Shown here piece by piece: positions 1,346-52,319 of a stretch of DNA of 64,000 nt. The notes under the pieces are model-generated. The model worked only from the letters and a program-made list of their open reading frames with translations, was not told the DNA's origin and ran no database searches. Position numbers and translations under genes: made by a program. This DNA is from a virus (lineage: Duplodnaviria; Caudoviricetes), in IMG/VR virus record IMGVR_UViG_3300020151_001495, positions 52,131-116,130 of that record. One strand, given 5' to 3'. Positions within the stretch are counted from its first letter, which is position 1, and the number at the start of each line of letters is the position of its first letter.

Positions 1346-1626
1346 AGGGGCAATCTTGCTCTAGAAGATCTTTTCATAAAATTCATACGTTGAGCATCAA
1401 ATTTCAGTTTTTCCTTAAGAGGTTTGGAAATAAGTTTAGATACATTTTCTAATTCAATATTATGTGATTCGCAATAAACAAGAATAGCTTCAATATAGTT
1501 GAGACCACCTTGATTAGAACGAACGATTTCTTCAACTTCCATAGAGAATTTTGTAGCAGTCATAAATTTGTCTTCAATAAATTGTTCAAAAGTTTCGCCA
1601 TTTTTAGTGGATTTACGTTGTTCCAT
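1342..1626 (-). CDS. gp33: Late transcription coactivator gp33
   Basis: NYIEAILVYCE...SKLISKPLKEKLKFDAQRMNF. Confidence 0.9.
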   Translation of the reverse strand: MEQRKSTKNGETFEQFIEDKFMTATKFSMEVEEIVRSNQGGLNYIEAILVYCESHNIELENVSKLISKPLKEKLKFDAQRMNFMKRSSRARLPL

Positions 1627-2297
1627 TAGAACTTAAGCATTTGGTTATTCCATTCTTTAATATAATCTAGAAGTACATTCATATAATGTTTGATATCGTA
1701 TTCCTGAAAGACTTGAATTTCTCCATCCTCACATGCAATTAGAGTTACGAGTTTCTTTACTTTAACCCCAGTACGTTCATAATACATCATTGCATATGCA
1801 CATTCCTGAGCTATGTAATTGTCAATCCATTCTCTCTTCTTTGGTTCAGTAGATGTTTTGAAATCTATAATTGCAAGCTCATTCTCGTATTCTGCAATGC
1901 AATCGACTCTTCCTGCAAGCTTTAATTTATCGCTATACAGCGCCCCCTCTAGAGTATGGATATTATTAATTTTATCTAGAAAAGGTTTTATACATTTAAA
2001 CATGTATAAAGGGAGTACTTTATCCTTGTACTTCTCTTCATTGAATATATTATTTAGGTAATCTTCATTCATTAGATGAAAATTAGTTCCCCTAAGTGCA
2101 GCTCTGGAAGAAATACGATTAGCTTCTTTTTCTCCTACTCTTTTTCTCCATTCAAGAATAGACTTCTTTTTCATGGCTCCTATAACAGTAGTAACGGAGG
2201 GATATTTGTTACCTTCTGGAGTAACATACATCCTTCCGTTATTTGTGGTTATAGATTGTAGATCAATTAAAGGAGCATTATTTAAATGTACAAACAT
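1626..2297 (-). CDS. PD-(D/E)XK exonuclease (Cas4/RecB-like) of T4-like cyanophages
   Basis: YPSVTTV, GTNFH, AGRVDCIAEY...IIDFKTS, Q..AYA motifs. Confidence 0.85.
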   Translation of the reverse strand: MFVHLNNAPLIDLQSITTNNGRMYVTPEGNKYPSVTTVIGAMKKKSILEWRKRVGEKEANRISSRAALRGTNFHLMNEDYLNNIFNEEKYKDKVLPLYMFKCIKPFLDKINNIHTLEGALYSDKLKLAGRVDCIAEYENELAIIDFKTSTEPKKREWIDNYIAQECAYAMMYYERTGVKVKKLVTLIACEDGEIQVFQEYDIKHYMNVLLDYIKEWNNQMLKF

Positions 2298-3052: not shown

Positions 3053-3279
3053 ACGTCAATAGTCGAATGTGCATGGTTTGTTTTGATGCGACGAAGAACG
3101 TCTTTAAAGGTATCAGGAGCTTTGTTTTTTAACTCTCCAACTCCTCCCACTACGTTTATTCCCGTAGGAACTTGCGTAAGGTGTGGATTTTCTGCCAGGT
3201 ACGTTTCTCGTTCAGCCATGTACATCCATTTATCAAAATGTTCACCTGTGTTATTATCTCTAAATCTATAAGTTGGCAA
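3049..3279 (-). CDS. FmdB-like small protein; start probably TTG at 3279
   Basis: (M)PTYRFRDNNTGE N-terminus; GGAGG 6 nt upstream of the TTG. Confidence 0.65.
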   Translation of the reverse strand: MPTYRFRDNNTGEHFDKWMYMAERETYLAENPHLTQVPTGINVVGGVGELKNKAPDTFKDVLRRIKTNHAHSTIDV

Positions 3280-3280
3280 G

Positions 3281-3826
3281 TTATACCTCCATTGTGTTAA
3301 ACCATTCAGGAATTGTGGCGGGAGATTTCCATTTCGCAAAAGAAACTTTTTCTCCAATATAATAATTGCGATAAGACTGAATTGTGTCAGTTTCCTTATA
3401 TTTATCGGGCATTGCAGGTGGAGGATCCGACCAACCCAAATTAGGAAGATTAGTGGGAGGATACTTTAGATATGCCTTCAAAGACTCAGTAGCATGAAAC
3501 TTGCCATATCTCCTGGTGTACTCGATGCAACACTGCTCAAAGAGTTCGTAGAGCCACTTATAATGTGATCTAGAACTCCTAGCCCAGACAGCAGAAGGGT
3601 GGTTAATATGACAAGCTTTATAGAGATTTGATTCTCTTGGCTCATCAAGTTTGAATCGTTTGACTTTACGATTCTTTTCAGTAAGTTCAACATAACCAAT
3701 ACCGTCAAGAACTCGATGAGCAGTTGATAGAAGTTGTGCATACTCAACAATCATTTTAACTACATGTTTGTCACAATGCTCTTGGGCACAAATTGTAGGA
3801 TTGTAATCTAGATAAAAAATGTTCAT
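3281..3826 (-). CDS. Pyrimidine-dimer DNA glycosylase/endonuclease V-like protein
   Basis: MNIFYLD...HCDKHVVKMIVEYAQLLSTAH, HINHPSAVWAR, YRNYY motifs. Confidence 0.8.
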   Translation of the reverse strand: MNIFYLDYNPTICAQEHCDKHVVKMIVEYAQLLSTAHRVLDGIGYVELTEKNRKVKRFKLDEPRESNLYKACHINHPSAVWARSSRSHYKWLYELFEQCCIEYTRRYGKFHATESLKAYLKYPPTNLPNLGWSDPPPAMPDKYKETDTIQSYRNYYIGEKVSFAKWKSPATIPEWFNTMEV

Positions 3827-14300: not shown

Positions 14301-14303
14301 TTT

Positions 14304-14457
14304 GCAGGCTCGCCACCAATTTTGATTACGAGAAAATTGGAAACTCGGCGGGAGTATCCTCCACATCCGCACCAGTCGGCATATTTTATGTCCATCCGAC
14401 GAGGACTATTTGGGTCATATTGACTCCACCAGGGTATTTTTTAAGTCATTCCAAGAC
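14304..14457 (-). ncRNA. Pseudoknotted ncRNA, probably the cyanophage manA RNA motif
   Basis: Two H-type pseudoknots (GTCC/GGAC with GTCGG/CCGAC; CGAG/CTCG with CCAATTTT/AAAATTGG) and GGTGCGGATG...CCCGCC...GTGGCGAGCCTG core; family name from recall, not searched. Confidence 0.65.
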
Positions 14458-16939: not shown

Positions 16940-17202
16940 ATATCTTCGGGATTCTCCAAGTCTACTGGAAATAAACATGGATGGCATTCTTCATCAATTA
17001 AATAGAAGGATGTTCTGTATAATTCTTCAGGAGTATATTCAGGATTGTTTGATGCATCTATCTGAATATATGGATCCTGTTGCATTATATGAGGAATCTC
17101 TTCAAATGTAAAAGGAACATTGTTAATGAAATACATTTCCACAATTTCATTGTTGTAGAAACAATAGTTAGATGAAATTTTGTATTTCATTATAGTATCC
17201 AC
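16930..17202 (-). CDS. Conserved cyanophage hypothetical protein
   Basis: MYFINNVPFTF...YLIDEECHPCLF; last 10 nt lie inside tRNA-Thr. Confidence 0.7.
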   Translation of the reverse strand: MDTIMKYKISSNYCFYNNEIVEMYFINNVPFTFEEIPHIMQQDPYIQIDASNNPEYTPEELYRTSFYLIDEECHPCLFPVDLENPEDMPE

Positions 17203-17224
17203 CGATACACATATTTATCGGTAA

Positions 17225-17342
17225 CTCCCCCGATAGGACTTGAACCTATAACCCATCGGTTAAGGAAAAAACTGGAATCGAACCAGAACTAAAGGAACCT
17301 TCTTTTCCACAGCCGATTGCTCTGCCATTGAGCTACAGGGGA
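17225..17342 (-). tRNA. tRNA-Asn(GTT) interrupted in the anticodon by a 46-nt insert (exons 17309-17342 and 17225-17262)
   Basis: Without the insert it is a 72-nt canonical tRNA: TCCCCTG TA GCTC AATGGCA GAGC A ATCGG CTGTTAA CCGAT GGGTT ATAGG TTCAAGT CCTAT CGGGGGA G, with the Asn G73. Confidence 0.9.
17263..17308 (-). ncRNA. Mini-tRNA-shaped intervening sequence
   Basis: GGAAAAGA AGGTTCCTTTAGTT CTGG TTCGATT CCAG TTTTTTCC T. Confidence 0.8.
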
Positions 17343-17379
17343 ATAAATAGTTGGTATTAATTTAAAAAGTTATACCAAC
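17342..17379 (+). promoter_or_regulatory. Late promoter and 8-bp hairpin abutting the HNH start codon
   Basis: AATAAATA at 17342-17349; GTTGGTAT(17350-17357)/ATACCAAC(17372-17379). Confidence 0.6.
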
Positions 17380-17709
17380 ATGAATAAAAAAGAAACTAGA
17401 ACTTATGCTGATAGAAAAGCAAAAAATCCTAACTGGGCTAAAAAGATGACAGAAAGAGTATCTGCAACTAGAAGAAAAAATGTATCTTTAATTAAAGAAG
17501 AAGCTGGAGGAAAATGCTGTATGTGTGGATACAACAAATGCACGGCAGCACTAGAGTTTCATCATTTAGACCCAGATGCTAAAGAAGGAGGAATTATTGG
17601 TTCCACTGCATCTTTAGCAAAGCAAAGAGAAGAAGCAAAAAAATGCATTCTTGTATGTGCAAATTGTCATCGTGAAATTCACTCTGACTTATCTATGTAT
17701 CATAGATAA
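17380..17709 (+). CDS. Free-standing HNH endonuclease, putative homing endonuclease
   Basis: CCMCGY...LEFHHLDP...CILVCANCHREIH. Confidence 0.9.
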   Translation: MNKKETRTYADRKAKNPNWAKKMTERVSATRRKNVSLIKEEAGGKCCMCGYNKCTAALEFHHLDPDAKEGGIIGSTASLAKQREEAKKCILVCANCHREIHSDLSMYHR

Positions 17710-17715
17710 AAATTA

Positions 17716-17926
17716 TGGTAGGTGGGGATAACTTTACCTATGTTATCCCTCTTTACTTCTCCAAGCCTTGGCCTAAAGGGGTATTTGGCACCTACGATTT
17801 TAAGGGCAAGGATGTCCACCTACGATAAAATCTACGATGTGGCCGAGGGGATCCTTTGTTTAATACAACGTTCCTTGTTGTACCCTTTACTACAGCATTC
17901 TGGTTTATCTTTCCAGTGCCACTAGC
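17716..17926 (-). ncRNA. Unidentified structured RNA of about 210 nt
   Basis: Several stems (GCACTGG/CCAGaaTGC, TACAAC/GTTGTA, GGGATAAC/GTTATCCC), three ATCGTAG repeats, ends in CCACCTACCA; ends approximate. Confidence 0.55.
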
Positions 17927-17998
17927 ACCTCTGTCTAGGAATCGAACCCAGTTTCCAAGTGCATTGTCTGCCTGTCCTTACCAATAGACTACCAGAGG
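17927..17998 (-). ncRNA. tRNA-like element with an unpaired anticodon arm
   Basis: Acceptor CCTCTG/CAGAGG, D arm with TGG, T arm CTGGG TTCGATT CCTAG; positions 27-31 and 39-43 do not pair. Confidence 0.7.
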
Positions 17999-18003
17999 AT
18001 GAA

Positions 18004-18406: not shown

Positions 18407-18459
18407 AGTGACTCCTCTGTTTGAGCATCGTTGATAGGCTTGAGGAGTATTAATTGTAT

Positions 18460-20718: not shown

Positions 20719-20789
20719 TAGGTGAAGAAGGAATCGAACCTCCGTAATTCAGTTAATCGCTGACCGCTCTGCCACTGAGCTATCCACCA
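20719..20789 (-). ncRNA. Non-canonical tRNA-like gene (loop CG-ATT-AA)
   Basis: Intact D and T arms; U1:U72 and G27:A43 mismatches; G at position 33. Confidence 0.7.
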
Positions 20790-50850: not shown

Positions 50851-52319
50851 AATTCTTTCTTAAAATTTATCGGAATAATTTCATAATCAAAATTTTCTTG
50901 TGAATATATTTTAATTCGTTCAATCAAGTGATTTAAAGTGTAATTTCTATTTTCTCCTTTTGAAAAATCATCAGCAATATCAAATAAAGTTGCTGTTGAT
51001 TTGTTATCACTTTTTCTCAATACTCTACCTATTGATTGCAGATTTCGTATTCTAGATTTTGAAGGAGATGCGAAAATAACATTATGTAAATTTTTTATAT
51101 TAATACCAGTAGAAAATGTTCCGTAAGATGCAATGATGATGGCATTTTTCTCAATTTCTGTGAGAGAACGTATTAGTTCTCTTTCTTCAGTCTCTACCCC
51201 ACCATACACAAAAAATACTTTTCTATTGGATCCTACCTCACTATTTATTAAATCAAATAAAACTCTACCATGTTTTTCTACCATGGCAAAAAGAACTAGA
51301 GTATTTCCTTTTTGATTTATAGCAAGATTTTTAATATATTTGTTTCGTCGTTCATGGCGACATATGTAATCCATTTCTTCTTGATACGACTCAAATGACG
51401 AGTAACCATATTGCAATAAGAGGATATTAATCTTTAAATTAGAAAGGTGTCCTTTTTCAATTAATTTTTTAGTTTTGACCACTTTATTCACAGGACCGAA
51501 TAAACCCTCTAAAATCAACTGGTTTACGTTCGTTCCATCAAGGGTTCCCGTGAATCCAATTCTGTGCTTGCAGTTATGAAGTTTTGTCATTATTGAAGTT
51601 AATGACTTAGCTTTAAACAAATGAGCTTCATCTCCAATAACAGCATCATATTTTTCATACCAATTTTTTGGCATTTTGTATATTGATTGCCAAGTTGTTA
51701 TTGTAACTGGTTTATTGGAATTTTTTATTTTGCCTGAATAAATTTTATGACAGTTAGATTCTGAGTCCCAACCATAATCATCAAAATCTTTTGTTAGTTG
51801 TTCTACCAGTGAAGTTGTAGGTACGATAATTAATGTGTTGTAATTCTTTGCAGTGTAATATCGTACAATAGAATAAATCATCAAAGATTTACCAGAAGCA
51901 GTTGGAGAAAGTAATAACTTTCTTTTATTTCTTAATGCTTCATATATTGCCTTATATTGATAATCTCTGATCTCTAACGGAATATGTAAACTTTTGATGA
52001 AATCAACTAAACCTTCAGGAGAAATATCATCAGAAATTTCATTTGGCATTCCATAGAATTTATTGTCTTTATCAACATAAGTATATCCTCGTTGACAAAT
52101 CCATTCGGTAAGATACTTATGTAACCCACAATAAATTAATCCATTTAATGGACTGAATAGTTTAATTTTTCCATCCCATAATCTCTTTTTAAACTGAGGC
52201 ATAAACTTTGCCCCAGGAACATCAAAACTAAAATATTCTGATAATTCATATTTTATATGTGGTTCGCACTCTACGGTGAGATAAATTTCATTTTTCTTTT
52301 GAATAATGATATCTGTCAT
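50847..52319 (-). CDS. uvsW: RNA-DNA/DNA helicase UvsW
   Basis: RDYQ, SPTASGKS, DEAH, TGT, QSIGR. Confidence 0.95.
   Translation of the reverse strand: MTDIIIQKKNEIYLTVECEPHIKYELSEYFSFDVPGAKFMPQFKKRLWDGKIKLFSPLNGLIYCGLHKYLTEWICQRGYTYVDKDNKFYGMPNEISDDISPEGLVDFIKSLHIPLEIRDYQYKAIYEALRNKRKLLLSPTASGKSLMIYSIVRYYTAKNYNTLIIVPTTSLVEQLTKDFDDYGWDSESNCHKIYSGKIKNSNKPVTITTWQSIYKMPKNWYEKYDAVIGDEAHLFKAKSLTSIMTKLHNCKHRIGFTGTLDGTNVNQLILEGLFGPVNKVVKTKKLIEKGHLSNLKINILLLQYGYSSFESYQEEMDYICRHERRNKYIKNLAINQKGNTLVLFAMVEKHGRVLFDLINSEVGSNRKVFFVYGGVETEERELIRSLTEIEKNAIIIASYGTFSTGINIKNLHNVIFASPSKSRIRNLQSIGRVLRKSDNKSTATLFDIADDFSKGENRNYTLNHLIERIKIYSQENFDYEIIPINFKKEL

Follow-up and report, generated by a model that had tools for sequence, protein, structure and literature searches.

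How could a transfer RNA (tRNA) gene whose anticodon is interrupted by a second, miniature tRNA shape still give rise to a working tRNA? This question is raised by a locus in a stretch of viral DNA of 64,000 nucleotides (nt), positions 52,131 to 116,130 of the IMG/VR virus record IMGVR_UViG_3300020151_001495, which we call the window. Bacteria and their viruses are not known to remove tRNA introns by any route other than self-splicing. In the window, a tRNA-Asn(GUU) gene carries 46 nt within its anticodon that resemble the acceptor and T arms of a tRNA. We tentatively read this insert, at a probability that we place slightly below one half, as a functional, tRNA-shaped mini-intron that the host enzymes RNase P and RNase Z would excise and behind which a phage ligase would reseal the anticodon. 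The window is part of a 116-kilobase (kb) record, estimated to be ~63% complete (G000), of a freshwater cyanophage, T4-like and akin to the Kyanoviridae. Its closest cultured relative is the Synechococcus phage S-CREM1 (~80% identity, over fragments only), and from this kinship with Synechococcus phages the hosts are probably picocyanobacteria. A complete sister genome with terminal repeats (G001; 172,253 bp) bears an identical split tRNA-Asn gene.

Read directly, positions 17342-17225 of the minus strand (the strand was absent from the initial annotation of this DNA) hold a complete class I tRNA, a canonical tRNA-Asn(GUU) split in its anticodon by the tRNA-shaped insert, as that annotation had described. 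The gene sits within a tRNA cluster and has an acceptor stem of 7 base pairs (bp; UCCCCUG/CGGGGGA, one U-G), the D arm GCUC-AAUGGCA-GAGC, a 5-bp anticodon stem (AUCGG/CCGAU) with the loop CUGU-(46 nt)-UAA, the 5-nt variable loop GGGUU, the T arm AUAGG-UUCAAGU-CCUAU and the discriminator G. From 17308 down to 17263 the insert reads GGAAAAGA-AGGUUCCUUUAGUU-CUGG-UUCGAUU-CCAG-UUUUUUCC-U. An acceptor-like stem of 8 bp (GGAAAAGA/UUUUUUCC) is stacked on a 4-bp T stem (CUGG/CCAG) with the T-loop UUCGAUU, a 14-nt linker starting AAGG joins the two stems on the 5' side, and one unpaired discriminator U stands at the 3' end. The minihelix begins at the first inserted base, and its discriminator is the last base before exon 2. 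The insert thus presents the features of an RNase P/RNase Z substrate, i.e., a coaxial stack of 12 bp, a 7-nt T-loop of the form UUCRANY closed by a G-C pair of the G53-C61 type, a single discriminator, and U at -1 with G at +1.

The minimum free energy (MFE) fold of the full 118 nt contains the cloverleaf arms and the 8+4 bp minihelix. Compared with shuffled sequences, the folding energy is not significant either for the whole 118 nt (z -1.17) or for the insert (z -0.25). Since the fold is not exceptionally stable, it is motif, register and comparison that carry the argument rather than energy. GUU is restored in two registers only, with the junction at 34/35 or at 35/36 (one U is ambiguous), and these are the sole two that had been foreseen; cuts of the RNase P and RNase Z type at the insert ends would, in the register originally described, leave ...CUGU-OH and pUAA.... 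Default tRNA finders overlook or misname such genes. At default settings neither ARAGORN nor Rfam detected the split gene. ARAGORN with introns allowed proposed a tRNA-His(GUG) with an intron at 37/38, an assignment ruled out by the GUU of the uninterrupted allele and by G73 in the body, and a weak Rfam tRNA match (19.8 bits) that joins the D arm to the T arm of the insert was rejected because it leaves the anticodon stem unpaired.

Natural alleles show what the insert interrupts. A 20-mer from the 5' half of the tRNA matches 20 viral contigs. The contigs L018, L019, L020 and L023 have tRNA exons identical to those of the window (72/72) around an uninterrupted loop CUGUUAA, and their homology to the window ends within two bases of either end of the tRNA. 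The window allele is therefore a working tRNA-Asn(GUU) plus exactly 46 nt. The full 118 nt recur in three further contigs of IMG/VR and, among lake metagenomes, in contigs from several independent runs, which excludes an assembly artefact, the chimera that the initial annotation had feared, for the split gene. No intron-less form with the flanks of the window was present in the DNA metagenome runs examined. In a genome scan, a 27-mer of the uninterrupted tRNA core proved common in many bacterial phyla, so the identity of the exons is uninformative on the host. A contig in DNA run X1 matches 17255-17337, with one substitution and three 1-nt insertions that all fall in the linker (insert positions 15-21); it has other differences, which are unlisted, and its flanks differ too. 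Pattern scans aimed at divergent versions of the insert returned only the same three contigs from viral contigs and, from JGI metagenomes, a different 28-nt insert in another tRNA-Asn together with chance matches. The metagenome contig L044 carries, at 1561-1661 (-), a tRNA-Asn(GUU) interrupted at 35/36 by 28 nt that do not resemble a tRNA, and an intact tRNA-Asn just upstream (1667-1738).

RNase P and RNase Z accept minihelices composed of an acceptor stem and a T arm. U-1/G+1 is a preferred RNase P context, cyanobacterial tRNA genes lack CCA, so that RNase Z cuts after the discriminator, and anticodon-loop nicks are the speciality of T4 Rnl1. We infer every enzymatic step of the following route from the observed anatomy, register, intron-less alleles, conservation, look-alikes and sister-genome ligase genes. 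The gene would be transcribed as a 118-nt pre-tRNA in which the tRNA body folds normally and the insert projects from the anticodon loop as an acceptor/T-arm minihelix. Host RNase P would take this minihelix for a tRNA and cut 5' of G+1, leaving an exon 1 that ends in ...CUGU-3'OH, and host RNase Z would cut past the minihelix discriminator U, leaving an exon 2 that starts with 5'-pUAA.... Contacts in the acceptor, D/T and anticodon-stem regions would hold the tRNA halves together, as in a tRNA that an anticodon nuclease has nicked, until an ATP-dependent RNA ligase seals the nick to give CU-GUU-AA; the best candidate is a phage ligase of the Rnl1 type, the second one of the PHA02142/Rnl2 type. 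No healing step would be needed, because 3'-OH and 5'-P are the ends expected from RNase P and RNase Z. Once released, the 46-nt mini-tRNA would serve as a substrate for CCA addition and may have a role of its own.

This route is favoured because both boundaries of the insert coincide exactly with canonical RNase P and RNase Z sites, because U-1/G+1 fits RNase P and the absence of CCA fits cyanobacterial 3' processing, and because the insert is conserved, independent inserts covary and an Rnl1 is present in the sister genome. Other splicing routes are unlikely, since there is no group I or ribozyme match, no bulge-helix-bulge (BHB) motif and, in G001, neither EndA nor RtcB. Bacterial group I introns (cyanobacterial tRNA-Leu, tRNA-fMet) and archaeal and eukaryal BHB introns share the anticodon-loop position with the window insert, but at 46 nt the insert does not contain a group I or other ribozyme core (P3-P8, ~200 nt or more), Rfam searched at E up to 10 gave only a partial tRNA match and no group I or ribozyme family, the fold has 1x1 internal loops and no 3-nt bulges, and no splicing endonuclease gene (EndA, PF01974) was found in G000 or G001.

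The sealing step directs attention to the RNA ligases. The initial annotation had noted that the window encodes none, which profile searches confirmed and extended to the whole G000 fragment, and it had proposed to look for an Rnl1/Rnl2 ligase elsewhere in the genome; such genes are present in the complete sister genome and absent from the G000 fragment, in which tblastn with the ligase, kinase and phosphatase proteins of G001 gave no matches. G001 encodes, at L033:1255-2481, a 409-amino-acid (aa) ligase of the Rnl1 type (PF09511, 98.8 bits) whose C-terminal tRNA-specificity domain, T4_Rnl1_C (PF20819), scores 26.9 bits, just under the cut-off of 27. Directly after it lies the gene for an AAA_33 polynucleotide-kinase-like protein (PF13671, 76 bits). 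The genome also encodes a deaminase-like protein, a HAD_PNKP phosphatase (PF25109, 100 bits) and, elsewhere, at L031:994-2055, a second ATP-dependent RNA ligase of 354 aa (PF09414/PHA02142, Rnl2-type, 102 bits). Judged by homology, Rnl1 is rare in cultured cyanophages: of the 40 best records listed for its homologues, B3, B23 and BUCT-ZZ01 were the only such phages. Inserts and ligases occur together in G001, B23, G018, G024 and G025, and neither was seen in G002, G014 and G021 (regions examined); G012, a complete genome with no Rnl1 or Rnl2 match, has three unverified insert predictions. An association of ligases with inserts across genomes is suggestive, but the sample is small and ad hoc and has exceptions (G012, S-CREM1), and it is not used here beyond what concerns Rnl1.

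IMG/VR was scanned for two T-loop motifs 22-36 nt apart, a spacing never seen in ordinary tandem tRNAs, and excisions were then tested for a restored tRNA. The scan recovered the window element and two others of unrelated sequence, each on a small viral contig: a 45-nt insert in a tRNA-Gln(UUG) with its junction at 35/36 and the end GCCA (L244:10731-10775), and a 44-nt insert in a tRNA-Ile(UAU) with its junction at 34/35 and the end UCCA (L176:4254-4297). In a structure-based scripted alignment of the three (a MAFFT alignment was discarded as misaligned), all have a 7-bp acceptor and a 5-bp T stem, and 35/36 stem cells are paired. The acceptor strands are only 5-8/14 identical, with compensatory changes at acceptor pairs 2, 3, 4, 5 and 7. 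The pairs G1-C72, G52-C62 and G53-C61 are invariant, as are the T-loop UUCRAYU, the U at -1, the G at +1 and the start AA(A)GG of a 9-14-nt linker, whose GG could replace G18-G19 of the D-loop and cap the T-loop. The search that had been proposed for homologous inserts of conserved structure and varying sequence was thus successful in part only, in that it yielded two unrelated minimal inserts with covarying stems. In both of these the insert ends in N-CCA and its own host tRNA gene also encodes CCA, and in the window both are without CCA (agreement in 3/3). A broader rule, that the 3' end of the insert tracks phage-wide CCA encoding, was not borne out, most other tRNA genes on L244 and L176 being without CCA. 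None of 10-11 ARAGORN-called tRNA genes of G000 and G001 has CCA after the discriminator, as read by a rough script in which several tails were empty.

The nearest published relatives are longer. The Lak megaphages have tRNA introns that were described as 'enigmatic', one of which 'may itself encode a tRNA', with no mechanism proposed (Devoto et al., 2019, Nat Microbiol, PMC6784885; Fig. 4, Table S6). The initial annotation knew of no description of such an arrangement, and in this respect the Lak introns supersede it. Full-text literature searches found no description of tRNA splicing by RNase P, RNase Z and a ligase, and no published relatives other than the Lak introns. Like the window insert, the latter are short, do not self-splice and interrupt phage tRNAs in the anticodon loop. 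They are identical across genomes, with alleles that have or lack the insert, and they contain a tRNA-like module (acceptor stem and T arm) whose end coincides with the 3' splice site, as is also seen in the contig L103. Unlike it, they are 79-114 nt long and place a 5' hairpin and an A-rich linker before a fuller module, whereas the window insert starts at +1 of the module and is a minihelix alone, the minimal form also seen in L244 and L176, with both ends on RNase P and RNase Z sites. The carriers differ as well, the Lak phages being ~540-kb Prevotella phages and the window carrier a ~172-kb T4-like cyanophage. In Lak A1, a gene listed as tRNA-Tyr GTA with a 93-nt intron (PMC6784885 Table S6) has a 5-nt variable loop and G73; judging from its sequence, it may be a split tRNA-Asn(GUU) with the loop CUGU/UAA, if the intron ends at the module discriminator.

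A comparable case is found in L103, a 133-kb viral contig with a homologue of the HNH endonuclease gene that adjoins the split tRNA in the window. Two of its tRNAs (942-1098 and 3141-3309) have Lak-type inserts of 81 and 88/89 nt at 35/36, in which a tRNA-like module makes up the 3' part and stops one base ahead of exon 2; MFE folds of these inserts are unreliable. The second is tRNA-Tyr according to ARAGORN, yet it has a short variable loop and G73, and with the intron ending at the module discriminator it becomes CUGU/UAA, i.e., tRNA-Asn. In Synechococcus phage B23 (L134:208-319; MN695335.1:220408-220517), the anticodon arm of one tRNA holds a hairpin insert of ~40 nt. This tRNA scores 51.4 bits in Rfam over 110 nt, and the tRNA finders used here miss it unless introns are allowed. 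In the 372-kb jumbo phage G018 (L128/L263), ARAGORN places inserts of 32-80 nt in six tRNA genes, and three PF09414 ligases are encoded. Two of its inserts (tRNA-Gly, tRNA-Lys) share the start AUGGCUUCUGU and form another insert family, without a T-loop.

Conservation bears on whether the window gene is alive at all. G000 and G001 are ~82% identical over 53 kb shared, and their split genes are identical at 118/118 positions. From ~17200 to 17750, a segment that holds the split tRNA and the divergent HNH gene, identity is 96-100%, with flanks at 55-90%, and in sequence this segment looks like a homing island. The HNH product belongs to phrog_2255 (HNH endonuclease, E 3.8e-23) and has the features of a free-standing homing endonuclease, i.e., an HNH motif, an adjoining presumed target, a sporadic distribution and a surrounding identity island. 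IMG/VR contains 271 homologues. Among the best 80 of these 271 loci, an intact tRNA-Asn(GUU) lies within 150 nt in 54, on either side and in either orientation, in three arrangements, and a split tRNA-Asn lies beside the HNH gene in 3; at a fourth close locus (L056) the contig end falls where the tRNA gene would be. By its gene neighbourhoods, the family is a tRNA-Asn-associated free-standing endonuclease. Other members (L052-L127 loci) adjoin tRNA-Cys or tRNA-Ile. Since most homologues stand beside an uninterrupted tRNA-Asn, the pairing of insert and HNH gene is recent and not obligatory, and protection of the gene from the adjacent HNH, one of the roles first suggested for the insert, is not required. 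The insert is restricted to the closest HNH clade (88% amino-acid identity or more), and the insert-free L018-L023 also lack the HNH gene at the tRNA-Asn site, which suggests that split tRNA and HNH gene are probably mobile as a unit.

Such a cassette could carry a dead gene. A tRNA-derived scrap or small mobile element would then have inactivated a dispensable phage tRNA-Asn, which would persist by hitch-hiking with the HNH gene. The island of near-identity in otherwise diverged genomes is the signature of recent homing that this scenario predicts, the phage could still use the tRNA-Asn of its host, and no spliced RNA has been seen in the contigs of one metatranscriptome, none of which spans the tRNA. 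We nevertheless consider it unlikely, because within the island the two genes have not fared alike. In an alignment of four genomes (G000, G001, L002 and L003), 28/330 sites vary in the HNH gene and 39/273 in the downstream orf90, against 1/118 in the split tRNA and 0/46 in the insert alone. At the rate of the HNH gene, the binomial probability of these counts is 3e-4 in the split tRNA and 0.017 in the insert, and the test is conservative because the HNH gene is itself under selection. The sole variable site, G57A in the exon-2 T-loop of L002, replaces a purine by a purine. The pattern points to purifying selection on the split gene and its insert and thus supports an intron function. Nor would a random scrap start at base +1 and stop at the discriminator, keeping the two acceptor strands but lacking D and anticodon arms, and unrelated inserts repeat this design with compensatory changes.

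Several observations weigh against excision by RNase P and RNase Z followed by ligation. The minihelix is AU-rich and weak, with a stability no greater than that of shuffled sequences. Part of the conservation could be explained by recent transfer, as the split gene shares its high-identity island with a mobile HNH gene. X20, the only RNA run with the locus, has contigs that cover 17336-17827 (the HNH gene) and end just inside the 5' end of the tRNA; no X20 contig crosses the tRNA and no 46-nt skip is seen, so that these contigs are uninformative on splicing. The window's own genome fragment has no ligase, although this 63% complete fragment stops exactly at the start of the ligase region of G001. 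S-CREM1 has a PF09414 ligase yet an uninterrupted annotated tRNA-Asn, and a ligase of this family is hence not specific to intron carriers; since S-CREM1 has no Rnl1, Rnl1 is the distinctive gene. In L244 and L176, where the inserts end in CCA, a plain RNase Z cut after the discriminator would give the wrong exon end. The long introns of the Lak type, including those of L103, carry additional 5' sequence that RNase P alone could not remove. Finally, the full heal-and-seal kit of G001 (kinase, PNKP phosphatase and Rnl1) would be unneeded for ends left by RNase P and RNase Z.

The last three points are those expected if the insert is a real intron that Rnl1 seals after cleavage by another nuclease, either a dedicated endonuclease, of phage or host, with specificity for the tRNA-shaped module, or cuts of the RNase E/III type with subsequent kinase/phosphatase healing. 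As the 5' hairpin and A-rich linker outside the tRNA-like module and the CCA-ended inserts do not fit plain RNase P and RNase Z cleavage, the insert family as a whole may use another nuclease, and a single mechanism for all inserts is unlikely to be plain RNase P plus RNase Z. For the window insert we regard such a nuclease as improbable, given that it would not require both boundaries to fall exactly on canonical RNase P and RNase Z sites and that no candidate was identified, EndA homologues being absent from G000 and G001. It is very unlikely that the gene is not spliced at all and serves as a processing cassette yielding a mini-tRNA (decoy or regulator) and two tRNA halves, or as a masked, never-completed tRNA. 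In favour of such a cassette, tRNA-like small RNAs released by RNase P and RNase Z are known elsewhere (mascRNA), and the linker GG could cap the T-loop to give a stable elbow mimic. Against it, the exons have kept the exact sequence of a working tRNA-Asn, for which halves or decoys would have no need, and the lineage has RNA ligases suited to anticodon-loop nicks.

Splicing by RNase P, RNase Z and a phage ligase would combine elements of known systems. In mascRNA (MALAT1), plant mitochondrial t-elements and tRNA punctuation, an embedded acceptor/T mimic is cut by RNase P at +1 and by RNase Z after the discriminator, which sets free a small tRNA-like RNA. The flanks are not rejoined there, whereas those in the window are tRNA halves that need ligation. 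In T4 tRNA repair, a nick made by PrrC in the anticodon loop is healed by Pnkp and sealed by Rnl1. The window route is similar in that a tRNA broken in its anticodon loop would be held by its own structure and resealed by an Rnl1-type enzyme, and G001 has Rnl1, a kinase and a PNKP phosphatase. It differs in that the T4 break results from host attack, has 2',3'-cyclic-P and 5'-OH ends and removes nothing, while the proposed breaks in the window would be programmed, with 3'-OH and 5'-P ends and a loss of 46 nt. The cyanophage psbA intron and F-CphI are said to exemplify collaborative homing, in which an endonuclease-less group I intron is associated with a free-standing endonuclease. Here too a free-standing HNH gene lies beside an interrupted cyanophage gene in a high-identity island of diverged genomes, but the psbA intron is a self-splicing group I intron, and the relatives of the window HNH mostly adjoin an uninterrupted tRNA-Asn.

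The locus may therefore stand for a further kind of phage tRNA splicing, in which the intron is a miniature tRNA, host RNase P and RNase Z are the endonucleases and an Rnl1-type phage 'repair' ligase is the splicing ligase, a generalisation that we hold with somewhat less confidence than an even chance would warrant. If true, a protein-dependent splicing pathway would have been built from universal tRNA-processing enzymes and a phage ligase, T4-type RNA ligases would gain a routine biosynthetic role, and the maturation of a phage tRNA would depend on phage gene expression. Such an intron may keep the anticodon out of reach of anticodon nucleases until late, and it may release a CCA-tailed decoy mini-tRNA. 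The window locus is the cleanest test case so far, with an intron that is purely an RNase P/RNase Z substrate and raises no problem of an encoded CCA, natural alleles of both the split and the uninterrupted kind, a complete sister genome with candidate ligases, and probable picocyanobacterial hosts. Cyanobacterial RNase P and RNase Z have been studied by biochemical means. New here are a carrier that is a non-jumbo T4-like cyanophage, showing that tRNA-shaped inserts are not restricted to jumbo phages, a natural allele pair, a quantitative conservation test, two more minimal examples with covariation and, in the window insert, the simplest member of the tRNA-shaped introns.

Coordinates of the split tRNA-Asn(GUU) gene and its immediate neighbours in the window
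Feature	Position	Strand	Description
Exon 1 of tRNA-Asn(GUU)	17309..17342	-	Acceptor 5' strand, D arm, anticodon stem 5' strand, loop CUGU; 3' boundary at U35 in the RNase P/RNase Z register; matches the 5' part of the uninterrupted allele (L018/L019/L020/L023)
46-nt tRNA-shaped insert (putative mini-intron)	17263..17308	-	Read directly, with fold and intron-less alleles
Exon 2 of tRNA-Asn(GUU)	17225..17262	-	Loop UAA, anticodon stem 3' strand, variable loop, T arm, acceptor 3' strand, G73; CCA not encoded
Free-standing HNH endonuclease gene, 109 aa	17380..17709	+	Divergent from the tRNA; start 38 nt from the tRNA 5' end
7-bp hairpin ACCGAUA...UAUCGGU	17201..17222	-	Two bases past the tRNA 3' end; read directly

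From its sequence and position, the hairpin is a possible terminator or processing signal. Rfam places two RNA motifs above the gathering score within the tRNA cluster, a wcaG motif (14302-14408, -) and an abiF motif (18411-18447, -) that adjoins tRNA-Gly, as it does in S-CREM1. Between the HNH gene and tRNA-Gly lies a tRNA-like gene (window 17930-18003, -; L049:3058-3129, -) with good acceptor, D and T arms and an aberrant anticodon arm (3-bp stem, 9-nt loop, without U33). ARAGORN reports it as tRNA-His(AUG) in G001, L002 and L003 and makes no prediction in the window, and its positions 17939-17988 are identical between G000 and G001 (50/50). At 20719-20789 (-), ARAGORN predicts a tRNA-Asn(AUU) with the loop CGAUUAA (G, not U, at 33), a U1-U72 mismatch and an Rfam tRNA score of 45.8 bits; Asn(ATT) tRNAs appear in the Lak phage tables too.

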